Below, piece by piece: positions 3,286 through 19,686 of a stretch of 64,000 nucleotides of DNA. The DNA comes from Escherichia phage vB_EcoP_PAS59. The notes under the pieces are model-generated. The model did not search any database, had not been told where the DNA came from, and saw only the letters and a list, made by a program, of their open reading frames with translations. Each line of letters begins with the position of its first letter. The first letter of the stretch is position 1. Position numbers and translations under genes: made by a program. The stretch lies in sequence record OQ921332.1; one strand, given 5' to 3'.

Positions 3286-3338
3286 GAGCACTCACTAGAC
3301 AACTAGTGAAACGCGAAACCACGGCGAACGGTGGCGGG

Positions 3339-3379
3339 AGGTGAGAAAGCACCTCGATAGATTTACCGCTCTTTAACAA
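3339..3379 (+). promoter_or_regulatory. Hairpin AGGTG-AGAAAG-CACCT followed by boxA CGCTCTTTAACAA (3367-3379)
   Basis: 18-mer CCGCTCTTTAACAATTTA is identical to the copy at 3003-3020. Confidence 0.7.
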
Positions 3380-3439
3380 TTTAAACTTCTTCCTATATCG
3401 GTTGAACATGGCGAGCAATAATAACCATTGCAAGCTATG

Positions 3440-4185: not shown

Positions 4186-4198
4186 AAAGGTGAATATC

Positions 4199-5101: not shown

Positions 5102-5119
5102 CCTATAATAAAACACATG

Positions 5120-5154
5120 AGGCGCTATTCGAAAGGGTAGCGCCTTTTTCTTTT
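5120..5154 (+). terminator. Rho-independent terminator
   Basis: GGCGCTA-N10-TAGCGCC followed by TTTTTCTTTT. Confidence 0.8.
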
Positions 5155-5208
5155 ACTAGTGCATTGATTCAGTGTGCTAATCAAAGAAACTAAAAAGAGA
5201 TAAACACC

Positions 5209-5433
5209 ATGCCAAAACTGAAAACAGAAGTTAAGATGTATCGTAACATTCTCAACAACATGACCTATCGTAAAACCGATAAATACGGAATCGAATGCAA
5301 ATGCATTCTTACTGGCAAGTGGTATCCGTCGCCGATTCAAGAACAAGCATTGATTGAAAACTCTGTTACTTACACTATCACGCAGGAAACTAAGCTAGGC
5401 CGATTCCTTCGTAAGCTGGGGTTACGCAAATGA
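5209..5433 (+). CDS. Hypothetical protein
   Basis: ORF with ATG; overlaps the next start (ATGA coupling). Confidence 0.6.
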   Translation: MPKLKTEVKMYRNILNNMTYRKTDKYGIECKCILTGKWYPSPIQEQALIENSVTYTITQETKLGRFLRKLGLRK

Positions 5434-5651
5434 TCTTAACTCAATCCCATTTGTGCCCTATCTGTAAGAAAGCACGTGCTAACAATAACCATCGCAAGTG
5501 TAGTAGAATCTTACAGCGTCGTCGTAATGATGCCGAGATGGATAAGATTCGAAAGAATCAGTATGAGCACGAAAGAAAACAAGCGGCGATTAGTGCATCT
5601 TCTGTAATGTATCGTCGTGTAAGAGCACTCCAATATAAAGAGGTTGTTTAA
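5430..5651 (+). CDS. Hypothetical basic protein with a CPICK...C motif
   Basis: ORF, coupled to its neighbours. Confidence 0.6.
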   Translation: MILTQSHLCPICKKARANNNHRKCSRILQRRRNDAEMDKIRKNQYEHERKQAAISASSVMYRRVRALQYKEVV

Positions 5652-5861
5652 ATGACTAGTTTAAGCACGTTAGAGAAGAAAGCGACTCGACTGCTAGGAC
5701 GTCGTGTCCGCTACCACTACCTGAATAAAGGTAAGGCATTAACTGGACGTATTACCACGGTATCAAGTCGCTGCGGTAAACTAATCTCCGTAAGTGTTCT
5801 CTTTGATGGCGAACGTGTAGCAATTACACGTAGTTGGAAATCGTTTAGTTTAATTGATTAA
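5652..5861 (+). CDS. Hypothetical protein
   Basis: ORF starts 1 nt after the previous stop. Confidence 0.6.
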   Translation: MTSLSTLEKKATRLLGRRVRYHYLNKGKALTGRITTVSSRCGKLISVSVLFDGERVAITRSWKSFSLID

Positions 5862-5931
5862 GTTATTTGGTTAAGCCTTGCTATGTGGTAAGGCTTGCAC
5901 GATATAATTTATCAGCGAAAGGAATAAAGCA

Positions 5932-6375
5932 ATGGCTAAATCTAAAATCAGCATGAAAGGCGGACGAGTGTTCTCTATGAGTGAGCTGGAAAAAGAAAAG
6001 CCAGCCGCTGTTAGTCATATTAGCAAACGTAGCCTTAAACGAAGAGCTATGAAACAGGCCGCTCAAGCACATAAAGAATCACCTGTACCAAAGGTGCTAG
6101 GTCGTCGTGTTCATCGTGCTGATGCGCTTCTTCTTGCTGATCACAAGCGTTCCTTGTTAACCAACGGGGCAGCAAAAACAGAACAAGAAAAACGTTTAGA
6201 AATCTTTTGTAATGGTCGCACTAAAGGTAAGCAGAAGAATAAAGGTAGCACTAAGCCACCGAAAGCATTTCCTACTACTAGTCAATGTGCACCGGATGTT
6301 TTCTACGCTGACAGTAAACACAAGTGGGGAGTTGAAAAATATATTGACCCAATCAAAACAGCAAGAGTTAAGTAA
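5932..6375 (+). CDS. Hypothetical highly basic protein
   Basis: ORF; GGAATAAAGCA precedes the ATG; Lys/Arg-rich. Confidence 0.6.
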   Translation: MAKSKISMKGGRVFSMSELEKEKPAAVSHISKRSLKRRAMKQAAQAHKESPVPKVLGRRVHRADALLLADHKRSLLTNGAAKTEQEKRLEIFCNGRTKGKQKNKGSTKPPKAFPTTSQCAPDVFYADSKHKWGVEKYIDPIKTARVK

Positions 6376-6405
6376 GCCCCTTCTGTACCAGTGGTCAACT
6401 ACTAT

Positions 6406-6430
6406 GACGCTCTTCTTGAGCGTCTTTTGT
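6406..6430 (+). terminator. Rho-independent terminator T1
   Basis: GACGCTC-TTCTT-GAGCGTC followed by TTTTGT. Confidence 0.75.
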
Positions 6431-6432
6431 CT

Positions 6433-6453
6433 GCCGCCTCTGTGCGGCTTTTT
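6433..6453 (+). terminator. Rho-independent terminator T2
   Basis: GCCGC-CTCTGT-GCGGC followed by TTTTT. Confidence 0.75.
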
Positions 6454-6532
6454 GCGTAGCTAGTGATGCCTAAAGGGAACTCCCTTTGTGAATCATTGGC
6501 ATGGTTCAATCCCTATTGGATGGTCATTTGAC

Positions 6533-6558
6533 CGGGCCTTTAACGAGGCCGCTTTTTT
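6533..6558 (+). terminator. Rho-independent terminator T4 (short stem)
   Basis: GGCC-TTTAACGA-GGCC-GC followed by TTTTTT. Confidence 0.55.
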
Positions 6559-6612
6559 AAGAGTCTTTGCGAGGATTTTTAAATGAGTGAGGTCATGTTC
6601 ACTTTTCAGGTC

Positions 6613-6638
6613 GCCCCGTCTTCGGATGGGGCTTTTTT
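6613..6638 (+). terminator. Rho-independent terminator T5
   Basis: GCCCCGTC-TTCG-GATGGGGC followed by TTTTTT. Confidence 0.85.
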
Positions 6639-6690
6639 ATGCCCGTAAAACAGGGGGTAGTAAGTTCTGATAACGACAGCACAGCTACTT

Positions 6691-7077
6691 TTGACATTGA
6701 CTATTTATTATGAGGCAGGGAATCAGCCAACCGCTTGCAAAGCATTAGTAGCGGATACCGTAATAAACAGAATGTCACAACGAAAACTGACTGCCGAGCA
6801 GGTTATAAATCAACGAAACCAGTTCGAGTGGATACCCGTCCTATTAAAGAAGGAGAAACCTTTTAAGCGTTATGTAAAGCTGATTCGTGATGATAATCCT
6901 CTGACGAAGAAGTCAATCAGAGAGAGCGAGTGGCTTGCAAGGCGTGCACTGAAGAAAGGTTATGTGCCTTTGTACAGCGGTACATACTTTCAGAGTAAGA
7001 GCGAAGGGGTGCCAAAGTGGTATACCAATCCAATGTATTGTGGTGATTTAGTGTTCAATAATAGTGCCCGTGATTGA
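6691..7077 (+). CDS. SleB-like cell-wall hydrolase domain protein
   Basis: TTG start. TIYYEAGNQPTACKALVADTVINRM...QFEW resembles the Hydrolase_2/SleB signature (a.tiy.Ea....g..AVa.Vi.NR....qF). Confidence 0.5.
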   Translation: MTLTIYYEAGNQPTACKALVADTVINRMSQRKLTAEQVINQRNQFEWIPVLLKKEKPFKRYVKLIRDDNPLTKKSIRESEWLARRALKKGYVPLYSGTYFQSKSEGVPKWYTNPMYCGDLVFNNSARD

Positions 7078-7278
7078 TTCATAGGTGCCAAGATTGACAA
7101 ACTAAATTTCCTTATAAATCACACACTTATGATTTTCTCTGCAAAAAGTGGAAGTGATTTGGGACCAGAGGTAATGACTGTATATAGACCTCTGAAAATT
7201 ATTGATAGAAATTAAGTTTAGAAATAATAAATTCTAAATAACATTTCTTATAATATCTTACTTTAAGAGGATAAAGAT

Positions 7279-7584
7279 ATGACTTTAGAGGTTTATAGAT
7301 TCCTTCTCGTACTCACCGTAACGATTTCTGTTCTAGGATTTATTGCGTTAAGTAATAAGTCAGCAAGCTGGAAGCGTCGTTATGAGTTCCTTCTTAAGCA
7401 AGAGGAAGTCTTTAATGCTGATGTTCGTTCCAAACTGCTCAAGATGCAGGAGCAAATTGAAGCACGTAATGATCGTTTGGCTTCTTTGGGTTGGGAGATT
7501 AAACGTATTCAAGATCTCAACAAGCAACTCGCTGAAGAAATTAAACGCCAGAATGAGGAAACAGAGGATGCGCTCAAAGGTTAA
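7279..7584 (+). CDS. Membrane-anchored coiled-coil protein
   Basis: N-terminal TM segment VYRFLLVLTVTISVLGFIAL, then a heptad-like region; AGAGGA RBS. Confidence 0.65.
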   Translation: MTLEVYRFLLVLTVTISVLGFIALSNKSASWKRRYEFLLKQEEVFNADVRSKLLKMQEQIEARNDRLASLGWEIKRIQDLNKQLAEEIKRQNEETEDALKG

Positions 7585-7744
7585 GTTTACCACTGGTAAC
7601 ACTGTTCGCCTTGTTGGCGGTACTCAAACAGGTGTTATTCGTCGGAGAACAACGATTGATGGTGTTCTCTGTTATCTTGTTCAGTGGAATGGTGAGTCTT
7701 CTCCTTCCTTCGAACGTCGTACTGATTTGGTGCTAGTCAAATGA
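7568..7744 (+). CDS. Small protein (58 aa), SH3/KOW-like pattern
   Basis: Internal ATG of ORF 7382..7744, overlapping the end of the previous gene. Confidence 0.45.
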   Translation: MRSKVKFTTGNTVRLVGGTQTGVIRRRTTIDGVLCYLVQWNGESSPSFERRTDLVLVK

Positions 7745-7974
7745 AGATAAACTTCGAAATCATCCCAAAGGTTAAAGAAAAGCAGCTAATCTTCAGTGAT
7801 CTCTCTAACGGGGATATTTTTAAATTTAAGAATGTTGATGCTGATACTTATCTTTGGATGAAAATTGACAAACGGTCTGCCATGAAGTTAAGTGACACTT
7901 CTGACATCACTGATGTATTTATCCATTCTGAAGTCTCTAAGTACAAATACAAAATTATCATTGAGGGTAAGTGA
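7741..7974 (+). CDS. GDxF-family small protein, paralog a
   Basis: LSNGDIFKF motif shared with 6 other ORFs. Confidence 0.65.
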   Translation: MKINFEIIPKVKEKQLIFSDLSNGDIFKFKNVDADTYLWMKIDKRSAMKLSDTSDITDVFIHSEVSKYKYKIIIEGK

Positions 7975-8204
7975 TGAAAATTAATCTCTTCTCTGTAGTT
8001 GTTACTAAAAAGCTCAGTGAGTTACGTCCGGGCGATGTATTCCGTTTACCGACTAACTCTGAAAATGTCTACCTAAAGACAGACACTAGACTTAACGATA
8101 TGCATCGTGTGGTTGGTCTTAGTCAGGGGACACTGTTCCAATTACAGGAAGACCATGAAGTTATCCCTGTACCTGATGTTCAAGTAACTCATATCAATGG
8201 TTAA
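7974..8204 (+). CDS. GDxF-family small protein, paralog b
   Basis: LRPGDVFRL...GLSQGTLFQL...VIPVP; closest to 13948..14199; TGATG overlap. Confidence 0.7.
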   Translation: MKINLFSVVVTKKLSELRPGDVFRLPTNSENVYLKTDTRLNDMHRVVGLSQGTLFQLQEDHEVIPVPDVQVTHING

Positions 8205-8335
8205 GTAACATCGACTTATAGCCCTTGTGTTTATCAGAGGGCTATGTGAGGGTGTTCCTCAATTAACTATAATCTCAACGCCATATGGCTCACCGCTAGG
8301 GCGAGACTTGTCTCAAACATCCGGTGATAGACTAA
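8205..8335 (+). ncRNA. Conserved structured non-coding element, copy A
   Basis: Aligns with 14197-14335; hairpins at 8218-8245, 8247-8261, 8280-8289 and 8303-8314 show compensatory changes between the copies. Confidence 0.5.
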
Positions 8336-8510
8336 AACCTGTTAATTTTCGAACAGCTTTCCGATATGTAGGGGTATGTATCGGTTTGGGATAGAGAACA
8401 ATCTAGGGGTAGAGAGTTCTCGACAGTTAGTACAAGCGGAAGCCTTAACGTGTAGGGCTTCCCTTTATATTAACTGGCAAACCTGCCTCCACCAACAAAG
8501 AGAGAACGAT

Positions 8511-8651
8511 ATGAAGAAGACAACCAAACGTATGAACCGTCCTGAACGTATGGATGCAGTAGCAAATGGTGCTCTGAAGATTGAGTCTGCCATGCTTCGT
8601 CTGACAACTAACATCCGTAAGCGTCAAGGTGATTGGTTCTACGGTGGATAA
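8511..8651 (+). CDS. Small basic protein (46 aa)
   Basis: Internal ATG of ORF 8376..8651 after AGAGAGAA; terminator follows. Confidence 0.45.
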   Translation: MKKTTKRMNRPERMDAVANGALKIESAMLRLTTNIRKRQGDWFYGG

Positions 8652-8660
8652 TTAATAATG

Positions 8661-8690
8661 GGCTGCCCTTCGGGGTGGCCTTTGTTGTTT
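8661..8690 (+). terminator. Rho-independent terminator
   Basis: GGCTGCCC-TTCG-GGGTGGCC followed by TTTGTTGTTTT. Confidence 0.7.
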
Positions 8691-8734
8691 TAATTAAGGG
8701 ACAACTCTTAATTAAACTAACAAGAGAGGTTGAT

Positions 8735-8986
8735 ATGTTCAATCGTTTATTTGACCGTAAAGGTCGCACTGACATACTGATACCCTCTATCGGTGTGCCA
8801 GCTAAGTTCGGTGAGATACGTGCTGGTGATTTCTTCATGGAATCAGGTCGTCTTCATCTGAAGATTAATCTTGAACACGCTGTAGAAATCCTCAGTGATG
8901 ATAAGCCAATCATTGGCACTTCGGTGTACAGTGCAAACCATACTGTATTTGTTGTCAACGTCCAGATTGAGATTAAAAAGCCATGA
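8735..8986 (+). CDS. GDxF-family small protein, paralog c
   Basis: ATG 8735 after AGAGAGG; IRAGDFFM motif. Confidence 0.6.
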   Translation: MFNRLFDRKGRTDILIPSIGVPAKFGEIRAGDFFMESGRLHLKINLEHAVEILSDDKPIIGTSVYSANHTVFVVNVQIEIKKP

Positions 8987-9291
8987 CAATTTCATCTTCA
9001 ACTCGCTGCAATCCTAATGTAGATATCCGTGCTCAAATGTCTAAGATGCCCGGTGTTACTCATTTAGAGTTCACCTACAGTCACTCGCGGTATGAACCGG
9101 GCTTTACTGTGGTAATAAAATCTCCGTGGTTAACAATGACATTGTTCTCGGATGAAGTTGAGAAGGCGGTGAATGGTATTAAGTCAGGCGGACTTAAACT
9201 TTTATCCACTGAACTGGCTGATGAGTTCATGCCTCTTATCCGTAAAGGTGTGGCTAAAATGAACAAAATGATGGAGGCTGCAAAGCAATGA
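8983..9291 (+). CDS. Hypothetical protein
   Basis: ORF, ATGA-coupled. Confidence 0.6.
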   Translation: MTISSSTRCNPNVDIRAQMSKMPGVTHLEFTYSHSRYEPGFTVVIKSPWLTMTLFSDEVEKAVNGIKSGGLKLLSTELADEFMPLIRKGVAKMNKMMEAAKQ

Positions 9292-9542
9292 CAAACTTCC
9301 GAGCAGCAGTTATTACGAAAGTAATAGCAGTTGGTGATGTAATGATGCAAGTTCCTCTGAACACTCGTTACATTGCCATTGACCGAATGGGTTATGTGTG
9401 GGCTTGGAAGTGGAAGCCTACTTACAATGAACTGTTCGACGAATACCAGTGCGCTGGGCCTTACATGCCAACGTTGGTTGGTGTGTATGAAGACGGTCCT
9501 TGTCGTACTCCTCAGTTAATTGAACTACCGGCGTGTGCTTAG
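9288..9542 (+). CDS. Hypothetical protein
   Basis: ORF, ATGA-coupled. Confidence 0.6.
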   Translation: MTNFRAAVITKVIAVGDVMMQVPLNTRYIAIDRMGYVWAWKWKPTYNELFDEYQCAGPYMPTLVGVYEDGPCRTPQLIELPACA

Positions 9543-9543
9543 T

Positions 9544-9708
9544 ATGATTAAATGGTTCAAGCGTCTTGTGCATCTGCATGATTGGGTAATCCTTGAAAAA
9601 TATACGCTGAAGATTACTGACGATCACGGTGGGACAAAGCACAAAGGTCTTCGCTATATTATGCAGTGTAAAGTGTGTGGTCATGTTACCAAGCGTGACA
9701 TGATCTAA
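9544..9708 (+). CDS. MIKWFKRL/CKVCG small protein, tandem paralog 1
   Basis: Internal ATG of ORF 9520..9708; MIKWFKRLVHLHDW...CKVCGHVTKRDMI. Confidence 0.6.
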   Translation: MIKWFKRLVHLHDWVILEKYTLKITDDHGGTKHKGLRYIMQCKVCGHVTKRDMI

Positions 9709-9717
9709 GGGATCATT

Positions 9718-9882
9718 ATGATTAAATGGTTCAAGCGTCTCTTTCATTTCCATGAGTGGGAAGATCTTTCTACTTATGAATTGACGATCACAAATAAACT
9801 TACTGACAGAGAGCGACAAGGGTTGCGTATCTACTCTCGCTGTAAAGTGTGTGGTCTGCACAAGAAAACAGATTTGATCTAA
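9718..9882 (+). CDS. MIKWFKRL/CKVCG small protein, tandem paralog 2 (54 aa, below the ORF-track cutoff)
   Basis: My translation: MIKWFKRLFHFHEWEDLSTYELTITNKLTDRERQGLRIYSRCKVCGLHKKTDLI. Confidence 0.6.
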   Translation: MIKWFKRLFHFHEWEDLSTYELTITNKLTDRERQGLRIYSRCKVCGLHKKTDLI

Positions 9883-9890
9883 GGGGTGTT

Positions 9891-10100
9891 ATGTTCTTTC
9901 GTAAGAAAAAGCCCGAAGATTCTGGATGTAAACATGAATGGGTGGTCACTGAAAACTTACATATCACTCACGCTAAAGACACTCCAGTAGAGAGAAAAGA
10001 ATCTCGTGTATCTCGCATCTGTAAACACTGTTTGAAAATAGAACAGCATAAAGTTCCCGGTCATATCGGTCATGATGTGGCCTTGCGTATTTTCAGTTAA
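9891..10100 (+). CDS. Related CxxC small protein, tandem paralog 3
   Basis: Internal ATG of ORF 9849..10100; ...CKHEW...ICKHCLK. Confidence 0.55.
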   Translation: MFFRKKKPEDSGCKHEWVVTENLHITHAKDTPVERKESRVSRICKHCLKIEQHKVPGHIGHDVALRIFS

Positions 10101-10109
10101 ACAAATCCA

Positions 10110-10185
10110 GCACCCTTAGCTCAATGGACAGAGCAGCGACCTTCTAAGTCGTTGGTTACAGGTTCGAATCCTGTAGGGTGCACCA
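10110..10185 (+). tRNA. tRNA-Arg (anticodon UCU), CCA encoded
   Basis: Acceptor stem GCACCCT/AGGGTGC, anticodon stem GCGAC/GTCGT, loop CTTCTAA, T-arm GGTTCGAATCC, 3' ACCA. Confidence 0.9.
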
Positions 10186-10203
10186 ATCAACGTAGGAGGG
10201 TTT

Positions 10204-10344
10204 ATGACCCCTGAGTTTAATGAGTGGTTCGATGATATCTTTACTTCTCCTTTGTTCAGCGAAGAAGAAAGAGAAGAACTTAAAACCTACCTATGGATGG
10301 CTTGGCGAGATAGCCGCCGTAAGGCGCTTCAGGAGGGATCATGA
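10204..10344 (+). CDS. Small protein (46 aa) with ELKTY.W.AWRDSRRK motif, paralog 1
   Basis: My translation: MTPEFNEWFDDIFTSPLFSEEEREELKTYLWMAWRDSRRKALQEGS; paralog at 11879. Confidence 0.55.
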   Translation: MTPEFNEWFDDIFTSPLFSEEEREELKTYLWMAWRDSRRKALQEGS

Positions 10345-10667
10345 GCTGGGGTGGTGTAATTACCTTAACCTGTATCTTTATCGCCTGTGTAGCTCTTACA
10401 GGCTGTGTACAGCATCGTCCTGATGGGTGGTGTGCATTATCTGTAGAAGGTGTCTGTGTTTCCCGTTGGCATAGTGGGGAGAAGGTTCCTAGCGGTGAAA
10501 TTGATATGCGTTATGCTGGCGCTTCTTGTTCTAATGGCGGTGCTGTTGACGAGAAAGCTTATGCAAAACGTGACATGGAAACACAAGGTGATTGGTCACG
10601 ATACGACTTCATCTCCCGTGGTGTACAGTGTAGTGGCTCTGTGACAACAACAGGTAAGGAGTGGTGA
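10341..10667 (+). CDS. Predicted lipoprotein
   Basis: Signal peptide with lipobox VALTG/C; ATGA-coupled. Confidence 0.7.
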   Translation: MSWGGVITLTCIFIACVALTGCVQHRPDGWCALSVEGVCVSRWHSGEKVPSGEIDMRYAGASCSNGGAVDEKAYAKRDMETQGDWSRYDFISRGVQCSGSVTTTGKEW

Positions 10668-10668
10668 T

Positions 10669-10923
10669 ATGTCTAGTCATTATTCTGATACGAAAGCTTT
10701 ACTGGAAACAGCGGCTCAGACTTCATGCCAACAGCAAGTAAAAATGTTGTTGGTTGATATTCGTAATCTGCGTTGGCTTATCAAAGAAGGTCATATCGGA
10801 AACGCTGCCTATTACAACGTTAAAGATATCCTTCGCCGCCAGCACTTTCTTATCCACGGAAACGTGGTCACTCGCAACTATCAGTGGAATGGTCAATGGT
10901 TACAGCAGCGTATGTCCTCCTGA
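10669..10923 (+). CDS. Hypothetical protein
   Basis: ORF with GGAG upstream. Confidence 0.55.
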   Translation: MSSHYSDTKALLETAAQTSCQQQVKMLLVDIRNLRWLIKEGHIGNAAYYNVKDILRRQHFLIHGNVVTRNYQWNGQWLQQRMSS

Positions 10924-11150
10924 TTTATGTTATTGGTTGGTGGTTAGCAGCCATCGTAGTTAAGTGGTGCTTCAAAACCAATACATTCTATAACTTCTTC
11001 CACAACCCGTGGAGTGGTAAGCCTGATGAATATTCTATCTGGATAGTAATATTCTTCTGGCCTATTTTGTTATTATTCCTCTTACTCATCCCTTTCATGC
11101 TCCTGTTAGGGTGGGTGTTGGACAAGATGACAATCTTTATTATACATTGA
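10884..11150 (+). CDS. Two-TM membrane protein, paralog 1
   Basis: LLIYVIGWW...IVIFFWPILLLF; similar to 11622..11870; start uncertain. Confidence 0.55.
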   Translation: MEWSMVTAAYVLLIYVIGWWLAAIVVKWCFKTNTFYNFFHNPWSGKPDEYSIWIVIFFWPILLLFLLLIPFMLLLGWVLDKMTIFIIH

Positions 11151-11248
11151 AAGAAAGGATTAATAAAACCCACTTCATCATGTATGGTCGTACTAGAAGT
11201 TATATCAAGTATGACTTTTGGAACTCTTACTACGGTTAGGATGTTATT

Positions 11249-11470
11249 ATGAAACTGAATTCTAAACAGTGCCTTAAAACTGTTGAACTATCCTCCCTCT
11301 CTAATGGGGATGTTTTTGGGCACGATAAACATTTCTGGATTAAAACAGATTTCTTAAATGACGGGTACATCACCTGCGTCAATCTTTGGAATGGTTCGGT
11401 AGATGGTTATCGCCCTAGTGCACAAGTGGTTCCTCAGCCTGATGCAAAGGTTGTAGGTTTAGTCTACTAA
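11249..11470 (+). CDS. GDxF-family small protein, paralog d
   Basis: LSNGDVFG motif. Confidence 0.65.
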   Translation: MKLNSKQCLKTVELSSLSNGDVFGHDKHFWIKTDFLNDGYITCVNLWNGSVDGYRPSAQVVPQPDAKVVGLVY

Positions 11471-11479
11471 GGAATTCAT

Positions 11480-11653
11480 ATGGCTTGCTATGGTGGTGGT
11501 GAAGTGTGTGACGATGATGACATGGAATCCAACGGAGAGTGCCCTGACTGTGGGTGTGAGACGTGGAATGGTGTGTCAGTATATCCTGCCTGTAGTTATT
11601 CACCAGTGATTTGTAAAACATGTGGAGATCAACCTTGTGATCAGTCCTGTTAG
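11480..11653 (+). CDS. Cys-rich small protein (57 aa)
   Basis: My translation: MACYGGGEVCDDDDMESNGECPDCGCETWNGVSVYPACSYSPVICKTCGDQPCDQSC; 12 Cys. Confidence 0.45.
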   Translation: MACYGGGEVCDDDDMESNGECPDCGCETWNGVSVYPACSYSPVICKTCGDQPCDQSC

Positions 11654-11870
11654 TGTGTTAATAGTCTACCTGATAGGTATTGTGTTAACCTCAGCTCTGA
11701 TAAAATTCCTTGATGTAAAAGGTAGTGTCGAGTTCAGAGGATGGGGTAACGAACCAAACCTATCAAAGATAGCAATTATAGTTTTTCTATGGCCCATTGT
11801 TGCTGTGATGTTTATATCCCTTTGCTTGTGGGCAGGGCTGTGGGGTTTCATTCTTCCTAAAAAGGAGTAG
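11622..11870 (+). CDS. Two-TM membrane protein, paralog 2
   Basis: LIVYLIGIV...IIVFLWPIVAVMF; start uncertain (GTG options). Confidence 0.55.
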   Translation: MEINLVISPVSVLIVYLIGIVLTSALIKFLDVKGSVEFRGWGNEPNLSKIAIIVFLWPIVAVMFISLCLWAGLWGFILPKKE

Positions 11871-11878
11871 GGGTATTT

Positions 11879-12010
11879 ATGACTAAAGAATTTTTAGAGT
11901 GGTTTGGAAATACCTTCAAAGAATATCTATTCTCTCCAGAAGACTTTGAAGAGCTGAAAACCTACACTTGGTTGGCTTGGAGAGATAGCCGACGAAAAAT
12001 GAATAAGTAA
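11879..12010 (+). CDS. Small protein (43 aa) with ELKTY.W.AWRDSRRK motif, paralog 2
   Basis: My translation: MTKEFLEWFGNTFKEYLFSPEDFEELKTYTWLAWRDSRRKMNK. Confidence 0.55.
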   Translation: MTKEFLEWFGNTFKEYLFSPEDFEELKTYTWLAWRDSRRKMNK

Positions 12011-12305
12011 TATCGTGAAGGACTCTTACGAGAGTCCTTTGAGATAGGACTTCAGATCTTCTATCAAACTAACTTTCACGTAACTAGCCCATAAGGGCGT
12101 TACCCTTCAATAACCCAGCCCACTAAGGGGGCGGGAGTTTAGTGCTGGAAAAGCATAACGCTTATCCTACAAAGGCAACCGATTGTTAGATCTTACATGC
12201 AATATTAATTAATAGGATATGGGAGGATTCGTCCCCTCCCCCTATTTATGAAAGCATTCTCCCGAGAGTTCTCTCATAAATTGGTCCATAACTAAAGGTG
12301 GTAAA

Positions 12306-12560
12306 ATGAAAGTTAACAAACCAGCCAGTAAGAACGCAATACCACTCAGCGCTCTGCGTCTTGGGGATTGCTTCATGTACCCTAACAGTGAAGATGGTGA
12401 TTTGTATATCTTACTGTCTACAGAGTTCTCCACTCGTTTGTGCATTAAGGGTGCGGACGAGCACAGACTTGTAGCCTGTCTTAACACAGGCCGAGCGACA
12501 GCTCCTCGTAAAGATGTTGCTGTTATTCCTATTAAAGCTGAAGCAACTATTAAGGAGTAA
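12306..12560 (+). CDS. GDxF-family small protein, paralog e
   Basis: LRLGDCFMY motif; AAAGGTGG RBS. Confidence 0.65.
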   Translation: MKVNKPASKNAIPLSALRLGDCFMYPNSEDGDLYILLSTEFSTRLCIKGADEHRLVACLNTGRATAPRKDVAVIPIKAEATIKE

Positions 12561-12563
12561 GCA

Positions 12564-12827
12564 ATGGCTCTGACCATTAACAAAACTCGTATTGCGGATA
12601 TTCCTCTAATGGTGGCAGGTGTTTCTATCGGTTCTTTCTTTACTTTGAAAGAAGATAAAGAACAAACCATTTACATGAAAGTGAACAAAAGCTCTAATGG
12701 TTGTGAATACCACCGAGCTGTGTCTGTGCAGAGTGGATACGTTCGTAATATGGCATCCAATATGCCAGTTGGTGTTGTGTTTGAATCAGCAACTCTGGAT
12801 TTAGTGGAGAAGATCAGTGAAACATAA
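12564..12827 (+). CDS. GDxF-family-like small protein, paralog f (divergent)
   Basis: SIGSFFTLKED...YMKV pattern. Confidence 0.55.
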   Translation: MALTINKTRIADIPLMVAGVSIGSFFTLKEDKEQTIYMKVNKSSNGCEYHRAVSVQSGYVRNMASNMPVGVVFESATLDLVEKISET

Positions 12828-13074
12828 AGACCATCCAAAGTATGTATCGCTATTGGATGCAGCCCTTCTCTGCACGTACTGGCTCCTTATTGTTATTGGG
12901 GTTGTGCTAATGATATGTGGTGTCGTACAGTTCTTTATGTATCTGCAAAGCGTGTTAGATACCACATTAGCTAACACTATAATCCTTGCAATTCTCGGTG
13001 TTATTGCTTTCTGTGTGATTGTCTTCTTCGTTTGGTTATCTATGAACGACGACTCTACACACACCTTCTATTGA
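12817..13074 (+). CDS. Membrane protein (2-3 TM)
   Basis: Hydrophobic segments LLCTYWLLIVIGVVLMICGVV and ILAILGVIAFCVIVFFVWL. Confidence 0.6.
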   Translation: MKHKDHPKYVSLLDAALLCTYWLLIVIGVVLMICGVVQFFMYLQSVLDTTLANTIILAILGVIAFCVIVFFVWLSMNDDSTHTFY

Positions 13075-13273
13075 CAGGAGAAAATCAGTGAGAAAACGTG
13101 CCTACTCTGAAGAAGAAATGGTTAACTTGAAAGGCTTCGGTCAACGACAGCCTGACGGTTCAGTTATCTGGTACATTAACGGACAGAAAAAGGCAAGTAA
13201 ATAAGCCCTCTTCTCTCCTCCTTTTAACTACTATGACGCCTCTCTTTTCGGCGCTGTTTTGGAGCTTCAAAAA

Positions 13274-13687
13274 ATGGCTGGGAAATTCCCCAACGTAAGC
13301 AAGAAATTGGCTTACCTCACGTATAAAGAAAACATTGATCTTCTGGTCAAGCTTTATCCGGCTTCATTCAACAAGCAATTCCCTCTTCCTTTGGAGCTTA
13401 ACATCCATAAGGAAATAGCCCGTAAGACCGGTTGGTCAGCGGAGAAAACAAGCATGGTGCTCAACATCTGGACTACTCGTATGGAGTATGTGATGATGGC
13501 CTGTAGCACTGGTAAACGCTTCAAGCTGCACTCTGTAGCTATGAAGATTCGTAGCCCTATCGACCCTGAGCCGATGGCTGGGTTCAGTAGCCGTTTGAAA
13601 TCTTTCCGTGATCGTGGTCGTGTAGTGAAATTCAAGCATGACTTCTCTTACAAGTTTGGATACGAAGCGTTCCAATTTGTTGTTTAA
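13274..13687 (+). CDS. ProQ/FinO-domain-like RNA-binding protein
   Basis: LVKLYPASFNKQFPLPLELNIHKEIARKTGWSAEKTSMVLNIWTTRMEYVMMACSTGKRFKL aligns by eye with the ProQ N-terminal domain (FP.cF....PLKIGI..dl....s...lr.al..Yt....Y......g..R.dL). Confidence 0.55.
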   Translation: MAGKFPNVSKKLAYLTYKENIDLLVKLYPASFNKQFPLPLELNIHKEIARKTGWSAEKTSMVLNIWTTRMEYVMMACSTGKRFKLHSVAMKIRSPIDPEPMAGFSSRLKSFRDRGRVVKFKHDFSYKFGYEAFQFVV

Positions 13688-13714
13688 TCTCTCTTTAAAA
13701 TAAGGTAATAAAAC

Positions 13715-13948
13715 ATGTCTAAAGTTAGCGCAATTGATGCCATCCGTCAGCCGTTCCAGTTCCAGTCTAAATCAACTCAGACCCACAGCGAACCTAAACA
13801 GATTCGTCTGGGCGGTACAGAGAAGACTGTATTTGATATTGCGAAAAACAAAAGCGTAACCATCGTCGAAGGCGGCGAACTGGTTAATGTTTCCCACCGT
13901 ATTCGCACTGGCAAGACTGCCAAAGATCGTGCTAAGAAAGGTTTGTAA
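13715..13948 (+). CDS. Hypothetical protein
   Basis: ORF; AAGGTAATAAAACATG. Confidence 0.6.
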   Translation: MSKVSAIDAIRQPFQFQSKSTQTHSEPKQIRLGGTEKTVFDIAKNKSVTIVEGGELVNVSHRIRTGKTAKDRAKKGL

Positions 13949-14199
13949 TGCAAATTTCCAATAAAACACCTCCTGAGCCTACTGTTCAAGTAAAAGATAT
14001 GACACCGGGAGATGTGTTTCGTTCGGTTGAATATCCGGGGGAATTCTTTATCCGAACCCCTTCTGCCTCTGTTGATGGTGTCACTAAGCCGGTAACAGCA
14101 GTTCAGTTGAGCACAGGTCATCTCTTCCGTTTAGAGCTTGACATGGCAGCTATTCCTGTTCCGACAGCAATCCTCCGCTTCGACGGAGACACAGAGTAA
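13948..14199 (+). CDS. GDxF-family small protein, paralog g
   Basis: MTPGDVFRS...LSTGHLFRL...AIPVP. Confidence 0.7.
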   Translation: MQISNKTPPEPTVQVKDMTPGDVFRSVEYPGEFFIRTPSASVDGVTKPVTAVQLSTGHLFRLELDMAAIPVPTAILRFDGDTE

Positions 14200-14335
14200 C
14201 ATCTATAGCCCTCGTGAGTATCAGAGGGCTATGTGAGCTATTCTGGCTCAACTAACCTAATCTTAATTTAATCTTACCCGTATGGGGCCGATGCTAGGGA
14301 GAGGAACAATCCTCAAACATCCGTCGGATAGAATA
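14197..14335 (+). ncRNA. Conserved structured non-coding element, copy B
   Basis: Aligns with 8205-8335; hairpins at 14205-14232, 14234-14250, 14277-14286 and 14301-14314. Confidence 0.5.
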
Positions 14336-14395
14336 TTTTAAGAGCAGGTTATCCACAGATATTGGGTGATATCTATTTAATTGGCCTTAAAGCTT

Positions 14396-14420
14396 GGCTC
14401 TCTTAGGAGAGTCCTTTTTT
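14396..14420 (+). terminator. Rho-independent terminator
   Basis: GGCTCTC-TTAG-GAGAGTCC followed by TTTTTT. Confidence 0.7.
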
Positions 14421-14440
14421 AAGTTCAAAGAAGAGGTTGT

Positions 14441-14608
14441 ATGGATAATAAGTTGAAAGCTAAATTCTTATTGGCAGCAATCTTTATTTGCTTAGCCACT
14501 GTAGGGTTTGTCAGGATGTACTCTTTTGCATCTTGTGAATTAAGCAAGAATGATAGAGGGTCTTACAACTGGCTAACCAATCAATGTGACAAACAGGAGA
14601 AGTTATGA
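14441..14608 (+). CDS. Small membrane or exported protein (55 aa)
   Basis: My translation: MDNKLKAKFLLAAIFICLATVGFVRMYSFASCELSKNDRGSYNWLTNQCDKQEKL; ATGA overlap with the next gene. Confidence 0.45.
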   Translation: MDNKLKAKFLLAAIFICLATVGFVRMYSFASCELSKNDRGSYNWLTNQCDKQEKL

Positions 14609-14967
14609 ACCTACGCCCCATTAAAGGCCATGTGAACCTGTCTACGCTTCATAAAGTAGCAAATGATTTAGGTGGTATGGATGAGAATGATTTGGAGCAG
14701 AATTTGCTCTGGATTGCTAATGGCATCAAGGCGGCAAAGGCCAAAATGGCTCGTGCACAAGGTAAACTAAAAGCGAATAAATATCTTATTCGTCGTCGTA
14801 ATGTCTTGCCTCAGGATGTGGTGAGTTTAGCTTTATCGGGATATAAAGCGGCAGAGTTAGAACTTCAGGAAGCTGAATTTGAAAAGATGCGCTTCCAAGA
14901 GAACTATCGAAACTTCCGTAGTATTGACTACATTCGCAAATCTCTGGGCCTTCTGGTATCAGAGTAA
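14605..14967 (+). CDS. Hypothetical coiled-coil protein
   Basis: ORF; GGAGAAG RBS. Confidence 0.65.
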   Translation: MNLRPIKGHVNLSTLHKVANDLGGMDENDLEQNLLWIANGIKAAKAKMARAQGKLKANKYLIRRRNVLPQDVVSLALSGYKAAELELQEAEFEKMRFQENYRNFRSIDYIRKSLGLLVSE

Positions 14968-14977
14968 AGAGGTAAAA

Positions 14978-16195
14978 ATGTTCCCTGTAACACTTCAAAG
15001 CTGGAAAGAATCAGAAGACGTTGTAACTGTTTGGCCTCCTTGTTATGGTTTCCTGAAAGCAGGTTACTATCAGGGTGGTGATTATGATGAAGATGAAGAT
15101 GGTTATCCTGACTACTACAACGCATATGACAGCAATTTTGGCTGGAATATCCGTATTAAGGTGTGGAGTGAGGGTATGATGGTTCGTCAAGGCACTGCTG
15201 AAGAGAATGTTCTCGAAAACATGATGCCTATGTCCGAAATCAAGTACATCTGGAACTCTGGTACACACCTTCCCGCTTATGGTGTAAAACGTTATGGCGA
15301 TAAAGAGCCTATTACCACTCAGTATTTCCGCGAAGGGTTGGAGAATGGAGACCCTCGTCCTCCGTCTCATGTAGAAACATGGGCAGAAGAAAACAACCGT
15401 CCTGATATTACTGATCGCGCTGTAATGGAAACCTTTGAAGCATTCATGGATAAAGACCTCGATTCATGTCTGGTGTGGCATGAAGCAGGATTCATGGGTG
15501 TTTGTACTGATGGTTGTCCTGCTGATCGCGCTCTGTTCTATCTGATGCTGAATCGCACATTCTATACAGATGATGAAAAATCTGCTGTGTATGAAATGTT
15601 GAACAAGATGTATAAGAAGGGCTGGTCTCCTTTAGCCTCTCTTGCATTCAGCCGACTGATCAACTCTTCAGTGGATGTGTTCGGTAACGAACGTGTTGCT
15701 TTAACAGGGAATGATTACGATTCCTGTATCTTCCAAGCATCTCTGTATACAGTGGGTGTTGGCAGTACAATGGTTGAACCTCGCCAGACCAAGTGGCGAC
15801 AGTGTGAATACACCGAAGGTGAAGGGCATCTTCGTGATGAAGACTTCCCCAGTCTGCTCTACCGTAGTGAAGGTGTGCGAGACTGTCGAGTGAATAACTC
15901 AATGTTCTTACCAATCCTTCTTCCTCAGTATTGCAATCTGCCGAATGGTGAACGTCCGGTCATCACAGAGAAGTCACTCTTGGTTGAATTTATCCGAGAA
16001 GTAGCTGAATCTGAAACATCTTTTGATAAAATTGTGTTCGGTTATAACTGGAACAATGAAACAGCTTCAGCTCGAAGCTACAACACGTATAACATTATCA
16101 GTAGTATGTCCAATGGACTGACAGGTAGTAATTATACAGTACGTCCCTCAGAAGAGTGGGAAAACATTTTGGAAAAATTATTCTTCAATAAATAG
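14978..16195 (+). CDS. Conserved protein of the amidoligase operon (405 aa), unknown function
   Basis: Internal ATG of ORF 14879..16195 after AAAGAGG. Confidence 0.75.
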   Translation: MFPVTLQSWKESEDVVTVWPPCYGFLKAGYYQGGDYDEDEDGYPDYYNAYDSNFGWNIRIKVWSEGMMVRQGTAEENVLENMMPMSEIKYIWNSGTHLPAYGVKRYGDKEPITTQYFREGLENGDPRPPSHVETWAEENNRPDITDRAVMETFEAFMDKDLDSCLVWHEAGFMGVCTDGCPADRALFYLMLNRTFYTDDEKSAVYEMLNKMYKKGWSPLASLAFSRLINSSVDVFGNERVALTGNDYDSCIFQASLYTVGVGSTMVEPRQTKWRQCEYTEGEGHLRDEDFPSLLYRSEGVRDCRVNNSMFLPILLPQYCNLPNGERPVITEKSLLVEFIREVAESETSFDKIVFGYNWNNETASARSYNTYNIISSMSNGLTGSNYTVRPSEEWENILEKLFFNK

Positions 16196-16203
16196 AGGCG
16201 AAT

Positions 16204-17154
16204 ATGTCAATCTCCGCATCGATTGCTCCGGTAACACCGGCAGAGGATTTCGGTGAGTCAGTGTTTAAAGGAAGGGCTTGCTTTGGTACTTTTAACTGTA
16301 TGCACATGTACTCTGTTACAGACATTAATGGCGACAGTCTTAGACAAACAAACCTTCGTGATAGAACTTCAGAAATTGAAGTTATTAACTTCTGGCCTCA
16401 CAATTTTTATGGCGTACCGTCTAAAGATATCGAAAGAGCTTTAGTTGAAGCAACAGACATTTTTAACTCAATGTCTTGCTATAAAGATATGTTCTCTGTC
16501 ACTTCGGTGAACTCTATTGCCGTGAACCTTCGAAACCATCCAGCAGACAAGGTGTTTACTGGACTAATGACCATCCGTAGCTATTTGGATGGTGATTTTA
16601 ATGGAATGGAGTTCCTTCAGGAAGGCGTACAAGACAAGGAAGAGTTGCTTAAGCGACAACGAATCGGTTTAGCTCTACGCCTAGCTGGTTTAAGTCGTAA
16701 CTTCTTTGGTCGCTGGTGTTATAGTAATGACGTAGACTCAACTGATGAGTCAGCAGCGACTTATTTTGATGGTGACATGAGTGCAATTGCATTTCTGCCA
16801 CTAATTTGCACCACTGATGAATTTTCTGAAAACGTATGGGTTCAGAATGTGTTCGGTGTTGATGATAACCGAGATGGTTATGTACGAAACCATAATGATG
16901 GAGTTCTCCGTCGTATGGCACGTCGTCGTGACCAAGACCCTGACCATTATGAGAGTATGAGTGAGTGGTTGCGTCTCTGGTCAACTTGTGCAGGTCACAA
17001 GCGAGAAGTATTAGATCAGCGTATGGACAGAATTACTGTTCGCAGTTTTATTGAACGTCTGATGCAAGCAGTACCTTCCTCAATGACACCAGAAGAAGCT
17101 GGTGCCCGTGTTGTTTCCCTTTTTGATGAACTCGTGGAGTATTACAATGACTAA
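16204..17154 (+). CDS. Conserved protein of the amidoligase operon (316 aa), unknown function
   Basis: ORF; overlaps the next start. Confidence 0.75.
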   Translation: MSISASIAPVTPAEDFGESVFKGRACFGTFNCMHMYSVTDINGDSLRQTNLRDRTSEIEVINFWPHNFYGVPSKDIERALVEATDIFNSMSCYKDMFSVTSVNSIAVNLRNHPADKVFTGLMTIRSYLDGDFNGMEFLQEGVQDKEELLKRQRIGLALRLAGLSRNFFGRWCYSNDVDSTDESAATYFDGDMSAIAFLPLICTTDEFSENVWVQNVFGVDDNRDGYVRNHNDGVLRRMARRRDQDPDHYESMSEWLRLWSTCAGHKREVLDQRMDRITVRSFIERLMQAVPSSMTPEEAGARVVSLFDELVEYYND

Positions 17155-17953
17155 GCGCGCTTTCCTTATTGGCTCTGACCCTGAAATGTTTGTTCGTACT
17201 GCTTCCGGTATTATCACCTCTGTGGCTGGTAAGCTGGGCTGTTCTAAAGATAATAAAATTGATCTGGCTCCTGATGTTCGTCTTCAAGAAGACAACGTTC
17301 TGGCTGAATTCGATATTAACCCACAGAAAGGGTTTGAAGCGTTTGATGATAATATTCAGCGTGGTATTGATCTGACTAACAAAGTTCTCAATGAACGTGG
17401 CATGGAGGCAGCACTTGGGATTAGCTCTCATGTGTTCACTTCAGAAGAACTTGAATCATTCCACCCGTCAGCTTTTGTATTTGGCTGTACTCCTGATTTC
17501 AATGCCTTCACTGGACAAAAGAACCCTTCACCAGTCGCAACCGATAAGGGTTTGCGTACTGCTGGGGGTCATGTGCACCTTGGTGTCTCCGGGACTTTAG
17601 AGATTACTCGACAAACTCAAATGATGTTGGGTGTGTTATGTGATTACTTCCTGTCCTTGCCAGCTGTGATCATGGATAAAGACACTCGTCGTAAAGAGTT
17701 GTACGGAAAGGCTTCTGCCATTCGCTACAAAGATTACGGTATTGAATATCGTTCTCTTTCTAACTTCTGGATTGGTGATAAGTCCACTCGCAAGTTTGTT
17801 TACGAGCAAGTGGATAAGGTTGTTCAGGGTTGTGATATGGAAGTGTTGATGTCACTTCACTCTCGCCTTCCAATTGAAAAGCTTCATAACATCATCAACA
17901 GCAACGATGTTAAAGAAGCGGATAAATTCTCCTCTAAACTCCAGATTGTATAA
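17147..17953 (+). CDS. Putative COOH-NH2 ligase (phiEco32-like amidoligase type 2)
   Basis: FLIGSDPEMF...EFDINP...GCTPDFNAFTG...GGHVHLG...EYRSLSNFW pattern, recalled from the phage COOH-NH2 ligase family. Confidence 0.55.
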   Translation: MTKRAFLIGSDPEMFVRTASGIITSVAGKLGCSKDNKIDLAPDVRLQEDNVLAEFDINPQKGFEAFDDNIQRGIDLTNKVLNERGMEAALGISSHVFTSEELESFHPSAFVFGCTPDFNAFTGQKNPSPVATDKGLRTAGGHVHLGVSGTLEITRQTQMMLGVLCDYFLSLPAVIMDKDTRRKELYGKASAIRYKDYGIEYRSLSNFWIGDKSTRKFVYEQVDKVVQGCDMEVLMSLHSRLPIEKLHNIINSNDVKEADKFSSKLQIV

Positions 17954-17962
17954 GGTGATATT

Positions 17963-18589
17963 GTGAGCTTGTTAAGAGATTTTCAACACTATTATTGTGG
18001 AACATGGATTGCTCAGCGATCACCTGATGGTAAAAACCTCCCTCTATATGTGCTTGATGTTCGTCAGCAAGGTAACTTTGATATCGACGACTACTCACAC
18101 GACGCTGAAAGGTCTTTAGTGTTTGAGGCGGAACGCTGGACTAAAAACTCTGAAGGTCAGTTTGAACGTCAGATTGTTAGTAATATCCCAGTGTTTGATC
18201 ACAGCCTCATTCTAGAGTCTCCAGATGTAGGATACCTTCAGCATGGTAATAACATGGTGAGCTGGACCCATATCAACCCTGTTCGTCAGCGAGCTAAAGG
18301 CTTGATGGGGAATAAACTTCGTGGTGCTGCACCTTCTCTCGGACGTTCGATTCCGGGTGATTTGGTGTACAACTTGTTTAATCCAGAGTTTGAAGGGTTG
18401 GTTACTCGTTTCATCTATATCAACCCTGTCGATGGAAAAGTGTATTACAAAGGGGCTTACGTTGGAAACGTGCTTCTTGAAGCTGGCTATGGCGACAACG
18501 GTCGCCAATCTTTAAACCTTCTGGAGAAGTTCAAGCACATTTCTTCAGACCTGTCATCATATAATGTAGAGTTGGTGGAATCACTATGA
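17963..18589 (+). CDS. Conserved protein of the amidoligase operon (208 aa), unknown function
   Basis: GTG start after AAGGTGA; ATGA-coupled to the next gene. Confidence 0.65.
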   Translation: MSLLRDFQHYYCGTWIAQRSPDGKNLPLYVLDVRQQGNFDIDDYSHDAERSLVFEAERWTKNSEGQFERQIVSNIPVFDHSLILESPDVGYLQHGNNMVSWTHINPVRQRAKGLMGNKLRGAAPSLGRSIPGDLVYNLFNPEFEGLVTRFIYINPVDGKVYYKGAYVGNVLLEAGYGDNGRQSLNLLEKFKHISSDLSSYNVELVESL

Positions 18590-19686
18590 CAACCGTAGCA
18601 CAAGTTTTTGGATACCGTAACCCTCGCTTATCTGAACCGCATCCAAGCATTGCTTTTCAGTGTGGTGTTGGTATTGAGTTAGAAGTCGAAGGTACTACTG
18701 ACATTGACGTTGATATGTGGGTTTGTACTGAAGACGGCTCTCTTCGTGATGGTTGTGAGTTAGTGTGTTCACGACCTTACAACGGTGAAGAATTACTTCG
18801 TGCTATTAACAATCTGAGTGAAGCAGTACAGGATTCTGGAGCCGAGGGGACTTGGCGCTGCTCCACTCACGTTCATATGGATATGCGGGACGCTGATAGT
18901 AATATCCTTAAGAAAGTTATTCTTGGGTGGACGTTCTATGAAAAGATGATGTTCAAATGTTCTGGATATCATCGTTACCGTAGTAACTTCTGCCCAGCTT
19001 TTGCTGTTGTTCAAGCTCAAGTTATGAATGCTTCATCAGCGTTCAACCGAGATGGGGAAGATTTCTTCCGTACTCTTGTTAATAGCTGGGACAAGTATAC
19101 CTCCCTTAACCTGTTGCCTCTATCTCAGTTTGGTTCTGTTGAGTTTCGTATTTCAGAGCCGAAGTGGAAAAAGAGTCAGCTGCTAAATCTGGTCAATCGC
19201 TTCTTGGTTCTCAAGAAACTGGCTGTTGAATATGCAGATTTAGATAATGAAGCTTATGTTGAGAAGTTGAATGAGCTGCGCTTCGCTCCTATGATTCAAC
19301 ATCTACCTCTAGACTATACTCCAAGAGATAGCGATCTCACTGAAGGGTATCGTCTTGCCCGTGATATTCTGTTCTGTCGTGAGCAATCTGTAACTTTGGT
19401 TGGTCGTGTTCGTGTGCAACAGACTGGCCCTGATGGTGAAGTCCTTATCAACTTACGTGACATGAATGACTTCTATGGTTTCTTGGGATATGTGCGCGGT
19501 AATGCCAACACTGTCTATGAAGAGATCATGACCTACTACACCCCTCAGATTGAAAGCACTCGAATCGCAACGGTTCGTGAAATTCGTCACATGTTTGCAT
19601 TGATGCGTGAATCAGGTAGCAGTGATAATAACATCACTGATTACATTCCAGACCATCTGGAAATGCAATTAGAACGACTGCTGTAA
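18586..19686 (+). CDS. Putative amidoligase (glutamine-synthetase-like COOH-NH2 ligase fold)
   Basis: GVGIELEVEG...EDGSLRDGCELV...STHVHMD...GSVEFRI motifs typical of the Amidoligase_2 family. Confidence 0.6.
   Translation: MTTVAQVFGYRNPRLSEPHPSIAFQCGVGIELEVEGTTDIDVDMWVCTEDGSLRDGCELVCSRPYNGEELLRAINNLSEAVQDSGAEGTWRCSTHVHMDMRDADSNILKKVILGWTFYEKMMFKCSGYHRYRSNFCPAFAVVQAQVMNASSAFNRDGEDFFRTLVNSWDKYTSLNLLPLSQFGSVEFRISEPKWKKSQLLNLVNRFLVLKKLAVEYADLDNEAYVEKLNELRFAPMIQHLPLDYTPRDSDLTEGYRLARDILFCREQSVTLVGRVRVQQTGPDGEVLINLRDMNDFYGFLGYVRGNANTVYEEIMTYYTPQIESTRIATVREIRHMFALMRESGSSDNNITDYIPDHLEMQLERLL

Follow-up and report, generated by a model that had tools for sequence, protein, structure and literature searches.

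A Predicted Minimal FinO/ProQ-Domain Protein Encoded by an Accessory Gene of the Coliphage vB_EcoP_PAS59

The Locus and Its Transcription Unit

The window analyzed here is a stretch of 64,000 nucleotides of Escherichia phage vB_EcoP_PAS59 (OQ921332.1), a Gordonclarkvirinae podovirus of E. coli and a virulent coliphage of the Suseptimavirus/Kuravirus type. The gene under discussion is located at 13274-13687 on the + strand, within a run of small + strand ORFs, and encodes a basic protein of 137 amino acids (16 kDa, pI 10.0, 24 Lys + Arg against 11 Asp + Glu). The ORF extends from the ATG at 13274 to the TAA at 13685-13687, whereas the program-made ORF list opens it at an in-frame TTG (13259). 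The ATG is preceded at a distance of 9 nt by a Shine-Dalgarno GGAG (13258-13261, + strand), which is evident in the sequence and is also annotated in phage vB_EcoP_SU7 (Suseptimavirus), and the SU7 orthologue, SU7_91, a “hypothetical protein” with the identical start, is annotated with 414 nt. The start is therefore placed at 13274, and the ATG, the stop codon and the length of the SU7 orthologue all bear out the position which an earlier note, made from the letters of the window, had given to the gene. The 2.6 kb of DNA round the gene is 93% identical to that of SU7 and 88-93% identical to that of about 20 related phages. Pairwise comparison of six orthologues gave dN/dS of 0.06-0.15, with dN of 0.003-0.03 and, except for one near-identical pair, dS of 0.07-0.33, and the amino-acid changes are nearly all outside residues 17-97. 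Consequently, the gene is real, and purifying selection on it is strong.

The protein consists of a FinO domain flanked by a short tail at the N-terminus and a single additional helix at the C-terminus, and no second Pfam domain was found in its 137 residues. The core FinO domain (residues 18-87, by the Pfam match) corresponds to 13325-13534 on the + strand and contains the putative 3'-nucleotide pocket residues Y72 (13487-13489) and R82 (13517-13519). The C-terminal region, residues 98-137 (13565-13684, + strand), was delimited from the alignment and from DSSP of an AlphaFold2 model: helix 98-110 is the final helix of the FinO domain, and helix 114-128 is an additional, partly basic one which is conserved only within the phage clade, where the alignment has the conserved C-terminal block “F.k.f.k.fg..aF”.

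As for transcription, AATGTA is the middle/late (gp36-type) promoter element of phiEco32 (PMC12276001), and none occurs on the + strand from 9016 to 18563, which is consistent with early transcription by the host sigma-70 RNA polymerase. A scan for the sigma-70 consensus gave fewer sites than in shuffled sequences, so that the scan is uninformative. Directly upstream of the gene is a weak terminator-like hairpin (13234-13259, + strand, GACGCC...GGCGCTG followed by TTTT, -6.5 kcal/mol), and the equivalent hairpin in Kuravirus 4E8 is annotated as a terminator. Downstream, a strong intrinsic terminator (14396-14420, + strand, GGCTCTC-TTAG-GAGAGTCC followed by T6) closes the unit; its stem carries a compensatory change in SeKF_80. 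Most likely, the host sigma-70 enzyme would transcribe the gene by reading through the weak upstream hairpin, and the transcription unit would end at 14396-14420, a terminator of the RNA-end type that FinO domains recognize.

Some other features of the early region may be mentioned. It has a tRNA-Arg gene (anticodon TCT, 10110-10185), which is the sole match in the window to Rfam (at gathering score) or by ARAGORN. There are small paralogous ORFs, namely, the ORF at 13948-14199, which precedes the structured element B described below, resembles the ORF at about 8100-8210 preceding element A, and two direct-repeat pairs (10263-10322/11938-11997 and 9543-9617/9717-9791, 72-78% identity) are located inside small ORFs. 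On the minus strand, a terminator-like hairpin with a T-run (13294-13277) overlaps the start codon and the Shine-Dalgarno spacer. As an antisense terminator it was rejected: two of its pairs are G-T, the Ser2 orthologues cannot form the outermost one and no antisense promoter was found, so it is probably due to chance.

Assignment to the FinO/ProQ Family

The earlier note had recognized four landmarks of the ProQ/FinO domain in the protein, and all of them are present in column-for-column alignment with ProQ and RocC: YPASF aligns to FP.cF, PLELNI to PLKIGI, VLNIWTTRMEY to L..al..Y and GKRFKL to g..R.dL. The same note had proposed an HMM search and a structural comparison as checks, and both turned out in its favor. 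Pfam PF04352 (ProQ/FinO) matches residues 18-87 with E = 4e-6 and 27.2 bits against a gathering score of 27, a single-sequence score which is borderline in that it exceeds the threshold by 0.2 bits. The same domain is matched individually by all of 42 aligned relatives (best E = 1.7e-20), and all 41 matches of a profile search carry the precomputed PF04352 tag. When a profile of five phage homologues was searched against the PDB, the top match was the N-terminal domain (NTD) of E. coli ProQ (5nb9, E = 2e-14), followed by RocC (7rgu, 7rgt and 7rgs, E from 8e-10 to about 1e-9), NMB1681 (3mw6, 6e-7) and Lpp1663 and FinO (6s10 and 1dvo, 3e-6 each), that is, all solved FinO-domain structures and essentially nothing besides. 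A profile is required for this, since the single sequence gave nothing relevant in the PDB. About 97-99 residues can be aligned to the solved FinO domains.

The AlphaFold2 model, built on a 41-sequence alignment (pLDDT 87.3, pTM 0.80), has the helical bundle of the FinO fold with the β-hairpin before the last helix. In a Foldseek comparison of the model with the PDB the first 26 chains are all FinO-domain chains (RocC, E = 1.3e-4, target-normalised TM 0.70-0.75), and winged-helix proteins follow, after a gap, at E > 2 only. Two other candidates were rejected: ribosomal protein L31 (Pfam E = 0.067; TIGR00105 E = 0.0067, far under its cut-off) and DUF7343 (19 residues matched, under its cut-off). 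The profile searches, the modeled fold and the conserved Tyr/Arg pocket described below all agree, and the domain identity claimed in the earlier note, a phage gene encoding a FinO/ProQ-domain protein, is thus confirmed at the level of sequence profiles and modeled structure. A second FinO-like gene was not found among all six-frame ORFs of the window with the family HMM and gp142 of Salmonella phage 7-11 as queries.

The assignment is correct, but it is already on record, and the protein is a member of a known family with unusual residue substitutions. The GenBank label of the gene is “hypothetical protein”, whereas the domain can already be found in UniProt and Pfam: BFVD/UniProt name the proteins of SU7 (A0A8F3C9D8) and 7-11 (G0X555) “ProQ/FinO domain-containing protein”, and homologues in Erwinia, Aeromonas, Shewanella and Salmonella phages appear in GenBank as “sRNA-binding protein”, “proQ: RNA chaperone” or “ProQ/FINO family protein”. 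PHROGs includes the protein in family 18901, which is labeled as of unknown function. FinO/ProQ homologues on bacteriophages have been placed in a heterogeneous FinO/FopA/RocC branch in a review (PMC9977716). In the literature searched there was no paper which characterizes a phage FinO/ProQ member, including its RNA binding, or which links Kuravirus or Gordonclarkvirinae to ProQ/FinO.

An Accessory Gene and Its Phage Relatives

Near-identical copies of the gene (at least 95%) were found by tblastn in 21 phage records, including the BASEL phages Bas86, Bas87 and Bas88, while about 100 Gordonclarkvirinae records share the neighboring DNA, so that about 80% of them are without the gene. In Kuravirus 4E8, 68 nt stand in place of 13247-13719 and the flanks are 82-97% identical, which makes the difference a clean indel, with the weak hairpin at 13234-13259 at its left edge. 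The FinO gene is therefore an accessory indel.

When 1.8 billion representatives were scanned exhaustively with HMMER, only 45 related clusters were obtained at E ≤ 1e-3, so the clade is small. It is distant from enterobacterial plasmid FinO and FopA, and a tblastn search of 72,556 plasmids for homologues gave one marginal match. The SU7 protein A0A8F3C9D8 (98% identity) is a direct homologue, and those of 7-11 (gp122/G0X555), Erwinia phages phiEa21-4/M7 (gp085), Aeromonas phage LAh_8 (gp040) and Shewanella phage KASIA (p031) are 28-41% identical; the 7-11 type differs in having a C-terminal extension of about 100 amino acids. Since the closest relatives are all phage proteins, the gene is not a recent capture from a host. 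In addition, phage PKM.Lu.22.1 (Grimontviridae, 76 kb) has a divergent FinO gene of the 7-11 type (250 amino acids, 29.5% identity; 1962-2714 of its contig) at the corresponding site, about 1 kb past an upstream non-coding element which it shares with the window, so the slot is the same and the allele differs.

The surroundings of the distant homologues deserve mention. In four phage lineages the FinO-like gene is 0-3 genes away from a pair encoding PRPP-synthetase-like (Prs-like) and NAMPT-like proteins, with TerC/TerD often near; these lineages include metagenomic contigs (L012-L016), 7-11 (gp119-gp122) and Erwinia M7 (gp083-gp085). Pairs of this Prs/NAMPT kind have been described as anti-defense pathways by which phages reconstitute NAD+. 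No NAMPT or Prs gene was found in the window. Furthermore, the main FinO gene of 7-11 is followed by gp121, and a homologue of gp121 (blastp E = 1e-25) follows the FinO gene of LAh_8, so that the FinO gene and the next gene are a conserved pair in these two phages. Phage 7-11 also has a second, degenerate FinO-like paralogue, gp142 (24946-25323 of its contig; BFVD G0X575; family HMM E = 3.5e-12), which keeps the W..RREY motif and is without the pocket Arg.

RNA-Contact Residues

The residues important for RNA binding by FinO domains have been defined by the crystal structure of RocC with the RocR terminator and by mutagenesis of ProQ (PMC9674577, PMC10168233). The 3'-terminal nucleotide is held in a pocket with an absolutely conserved Tyr (RocC Y87/ProQ Y70), an Arg (R97/R80) and a β-turn Gly (G52/G37), and a Ser-capped helix contacts three consecutive phosphates of the stem (RocC S70, K71, K73 and R75; ProQ S53, K54 and R58) (PMC9674577, PMC10168233). 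In ProQ, R58A, R80A and Y70F abolished binding to all seven RNAs tested and G37A was deleterious; the turn Gly is near-universal, and the R58/R75 position is Arg in about 80% of the family and Lys otherwise (PMC9674577, PMC10168233).

The phage clade was aligned with ProQ and RocC to map these residues, and the composition of each column was taken over the 42 relatives. Y72 and R82, the Tyr and Arg of the pocket, are each invariant in 42/42, and this among relatives which are 25-40% identical. T67 (ProQ T65/RocC T82) is retained, the capping Ser is kept as S55 (the N-cap column is Ser or Thr in 32/42) and K58 is the equivalent of RocC K73. On the other hand, the R58/R75 position is Ser60 (Ser in 13/42 and Arg in 8/42 of the column), ProQ K54/RocC K71 is Ala56, RocC S72/ProQ T55 is Glu57 and ProQ R62 is Asn64. 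The turn Gly, Gly in 38/42 relatives, is replaced by Asn43, both in the window protein and in each of the five orthologues compared with it. Such a replacement may be tolerated, since Asn is frequent at turn positions of the Gly type. The clade has its own signature, “W-T-x-R-x-E-Y”, with Trp66 and Arg69 in 42/42 and Glu71 in 40/42. Judged from the alignment, the 3'-end pocket is intact and the canonical stem clamp is not, and stem recognition must differ from that in ProQ and RocC because the R58/R75 and K54/K71 side chains are missing.

Compared with known systems, the protein has its best profile match in the NTD of E. coli ProQ, whose Y70, R80, T65 and S53 correspond to Y72, R82, T67 and S55, whereas R58, K54, R62 and G37 are not retained and identity is about 20%. 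Unlike ProQ, a global regulator encoded by the chromosome, it has neither the linker nor the Tudor-like C-terminal domain; with 137 residues, of which 98-137 form two helices, and encoded by a phage, it is not an enterobacterial ProQ proper. Closer in size are the minimal FinO proteins NMB1681 (the ProQ of N. meningitidis, a global RNA binder whose ligands have been mapped) and Lpp1663 of Legionella, which are about 18-20% identical. These are chromosomal proteins, while the present one belongs to a virulent phage and has Asn for the turn Gly, Ser for the helix Arg and the extra helix 114-128. In RocC, whose C-terminal region is long and which is dedicated to a single sRNA partner, R75, K71 and G52 are at the places of S60, A56 and N43, and R75D causes a more than 100-fold loss. 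The F-plasmid FinO, like FopA a plasmid type, requires for strand exchange a long N-terminal helix, which the phage protein does not have, and it has a cis-encoded antisense partner, FinP, of which no counterpart is evident for the phage gene. The Aeromonas and Shewanella phage types retain the R58-equivalent Arg where the window protein has Ser60.

The loss of the R58/R75, K54/K71 and G37/G52 equivalents raises the question whether the FinO fold has been repurposed and no longer binds RNA ends, serving instead, for example, as an adaptor for proteins or to bind some other ligand that contains ribose. Degenerate paralogues such as 7-11 gp142 with no pocket Arg do exist, and the adjoining Prs-like/NAMPT-like NAD-salvage genes in the four relatives hint at another context. 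However, a pocket Arg and Tyr that remain invariant across 42 relatives of such low identity, the strongly basic character of the protein, the N-cap Ser and helix geometry retained in model and alignment, and a window without a NAMPT or Prs gene make repurposing very unlikely.

The earlier note had also suggested that the protein could rewire the ProQ/sRNA network of the host. In its more definite form, the protein would compete with or mimic host ProQ or FinO and displace ProQ from the 3' ends of sRNAs and mRNAs during takeover. The gene is in the early region and the 3'-end pocket is common to ProQ; moreover, many terminators are among the ligands of ProQ, and it shields mRNAs against poly(A) polymerase (PMC12086684). 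Against this, with identity of about 20% and without the stem-binding residues which ProQ needs for every RNA tested, competition for ProQ ligands is not predicted, and the nearest relatives, all of them phage proteins, also speak against a host-directed role, which we consider unlikely. Rewiring of the host ProQ network by the phage protein is pure conjecture.

Structured Non-Coding Elements Flanking the Gene Cassette

The earlier note described the gene as lying between two hairpin-rich non-coding stretches. The stretches are real and the quoted hairpin stems exist, but neither abuts the gene: the upstream stretch is about 1 kb away with four ORFs between and the downstream one about 0.5 kb away with two ORFs between, so they bound a gene cassette rather than the gene itself. 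Both fold better than shuffled sequences (z = -3.8 for the upstream region at 12011-12250, + strand, scored over 12011-12300; z = -4.1 for element B at 14197-14440, + strand), and element A, a paralogue of B at 8205-8440, has z = -2.5.

Element B was found in 103 phage records, which include phiEco32 and the Salmonella phage 7-11 group (about 70% identity). In an RNAalifold consensus of 12 copies there are 66 pairs, of which 16 show compensatory changes, the loops interchange among UUCG, UCCG, UACG and GAAA (UNCG/GNRA), and the terminator stem covaries too. Among phages in which dS of the neighboring genes is about 0.3, the element is 97-98% identical. In the window, a covariance model of B matches at 14201-14355 and 8214-8364, the strands GCUAGGG and AACAUCCG of the element are invariant, and the range of A/B is Gordonclarkvirinae and Moazamivirus. 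No Rfam family was found for A/B; a match to STnc100 within 11950-14500 (21 bits against 47, E = 0.084) is sub-threshold and was taken as chance. Probably, A/B is a phage ncRNA, or an element of 3' UTRs, that has yet to be described.

The upstream region, found in 123 phage records, is framed by two hairpins of terminator type, at 12019-12043 and 12221-12250. The 3' portion of the region (about 12111-12246) is 74-78% identical to sequences of the N4-like Gamaleyavirus phages PhAPEC5, E20 and NAN33P5, and this partial match makes it a non-coding module common to unrelated podovirus groups. A, B and the upstream region all look like functional RNAs. As a separate observation, the hairpin TATAGCC-N-GGCTATG(TGAG) at 8217-8246 and 14204-14233 is a portable module, of which the window has two copies where shuffled sequences predict 0. 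In the window, the FinO gene is followed immediately by the ORF 13715-13948. Two metagenomic phage contigs have a homologue of this ORF, and right before that homologue the hairpin occurs alone (L015, 11629-11652; L016, 11392-11415); on these contigs the covariance model of B matches at hairpin 1 only.

Such neighbors invite comparison with FinO-FinP and RocC-RocR, in which the protein and one cognate RNA are a dedicated pair; here the RNA, A/B or 12011-12250, would be stabilized or matched to a target. Element B is truly structured with its tetraloop swaps and 3' terminator, it is in the 3' part of the transcription unit of the gene, it is 97-98% conserved next to genes with dS of about 0.3, and a B-like element occurs together with FinO homologues in phage 7-11. 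However, the gene is found in 21 records as compared with 103 and 123 for the elements. Kuravirus 4E8, in which the gene is absent, keeps element B and the upstream element at 97-98% identity, and phiEco32 itself has B. The variants of the upstream element do not follow the presence of the gene: the element is 76-78% identical to that of the window in several FinO carriers (MLP3, EK010 and HC-25922) as against 95-97% in phages without the gene. Moreover, the covariance model detected no B-like element in the complete genome of Erwinia M7, which has a FinO homologue, or in the FinO-homologue loci of the Aeromonas and Shewanella phages. The elements, present in about five times more phages than the gene, kept in 4E8 and absent from M7, are therefore not co-inherited partners, and co-occurrence gives no support to the cognate phage RNAs next door that had been proposed in the earlier note. 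No co-inherited, cis-encoded partner RNA of the FinO/FopA type was found for the gene, and a dedicated pair is quite unlikely.

The elements could still be among the ligands, since element B ends in a canonical terminator, and this terminator, like every other terminator of the early region, is a plausible candidate; a simple scan gave six strong terminators for positions 1-19000. One could go further and regard the protein as the accessory half of a phage RNP which docks on the terminator of element B/A and modulates the stability or activity of that RNA. If true, this would be the first system of chaperone and ncRNA in a virulent phage, and we give it a very low probability. Still more speculative is a variant, suggested by the relatives beside Prs/NAMPT-like NAD-salvage genes, in which the pocket for the 3' ribose would recognize a modified RNA end or nucleotide in an arms race over NAD.

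Proposed Function and Significance

The reading which we regard as probable is that the gene encodes an accessory early minimal FinO-domain protein which binds RNAs having a hairpin and a 3'-OH U-tail. Binding of terminators and 3' ends may reasonably be expected from the invariant pocket, an expectation that is weakened by the missing stem-binding residues. The ligands would be the intrinsic terminators of the phage and possibly those of the host. The stem may be contacted through the clade-invariant Arg69, Lys58, the basic N-terminal tail and the C-terminal helix. The bound 3' ends would be shielded from 3'-to-5' exonucleases and from polyadenylation, as with ProQ, or else RNA-RNA pairing would be aided.

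Of the RNA-binding proteins associated with sRNAs in bacteria there are three major classes, and the FinO/ProQ proteins make up one of them. The present result is a correct annotation and not a discovery, and it provides phage RNA biology with a candidate which is tractable and unsurprising. The clade is a small and tractable E. coli example of the FinO/ProQ proteins of virulent phages, with natural gene-less relatives for comparison. Furthermore, because it has kept the 3'-end pocket and lost the canonical stem-binding arginine, it could reveal which contacts RNA recognition by FinO domains truly requires.
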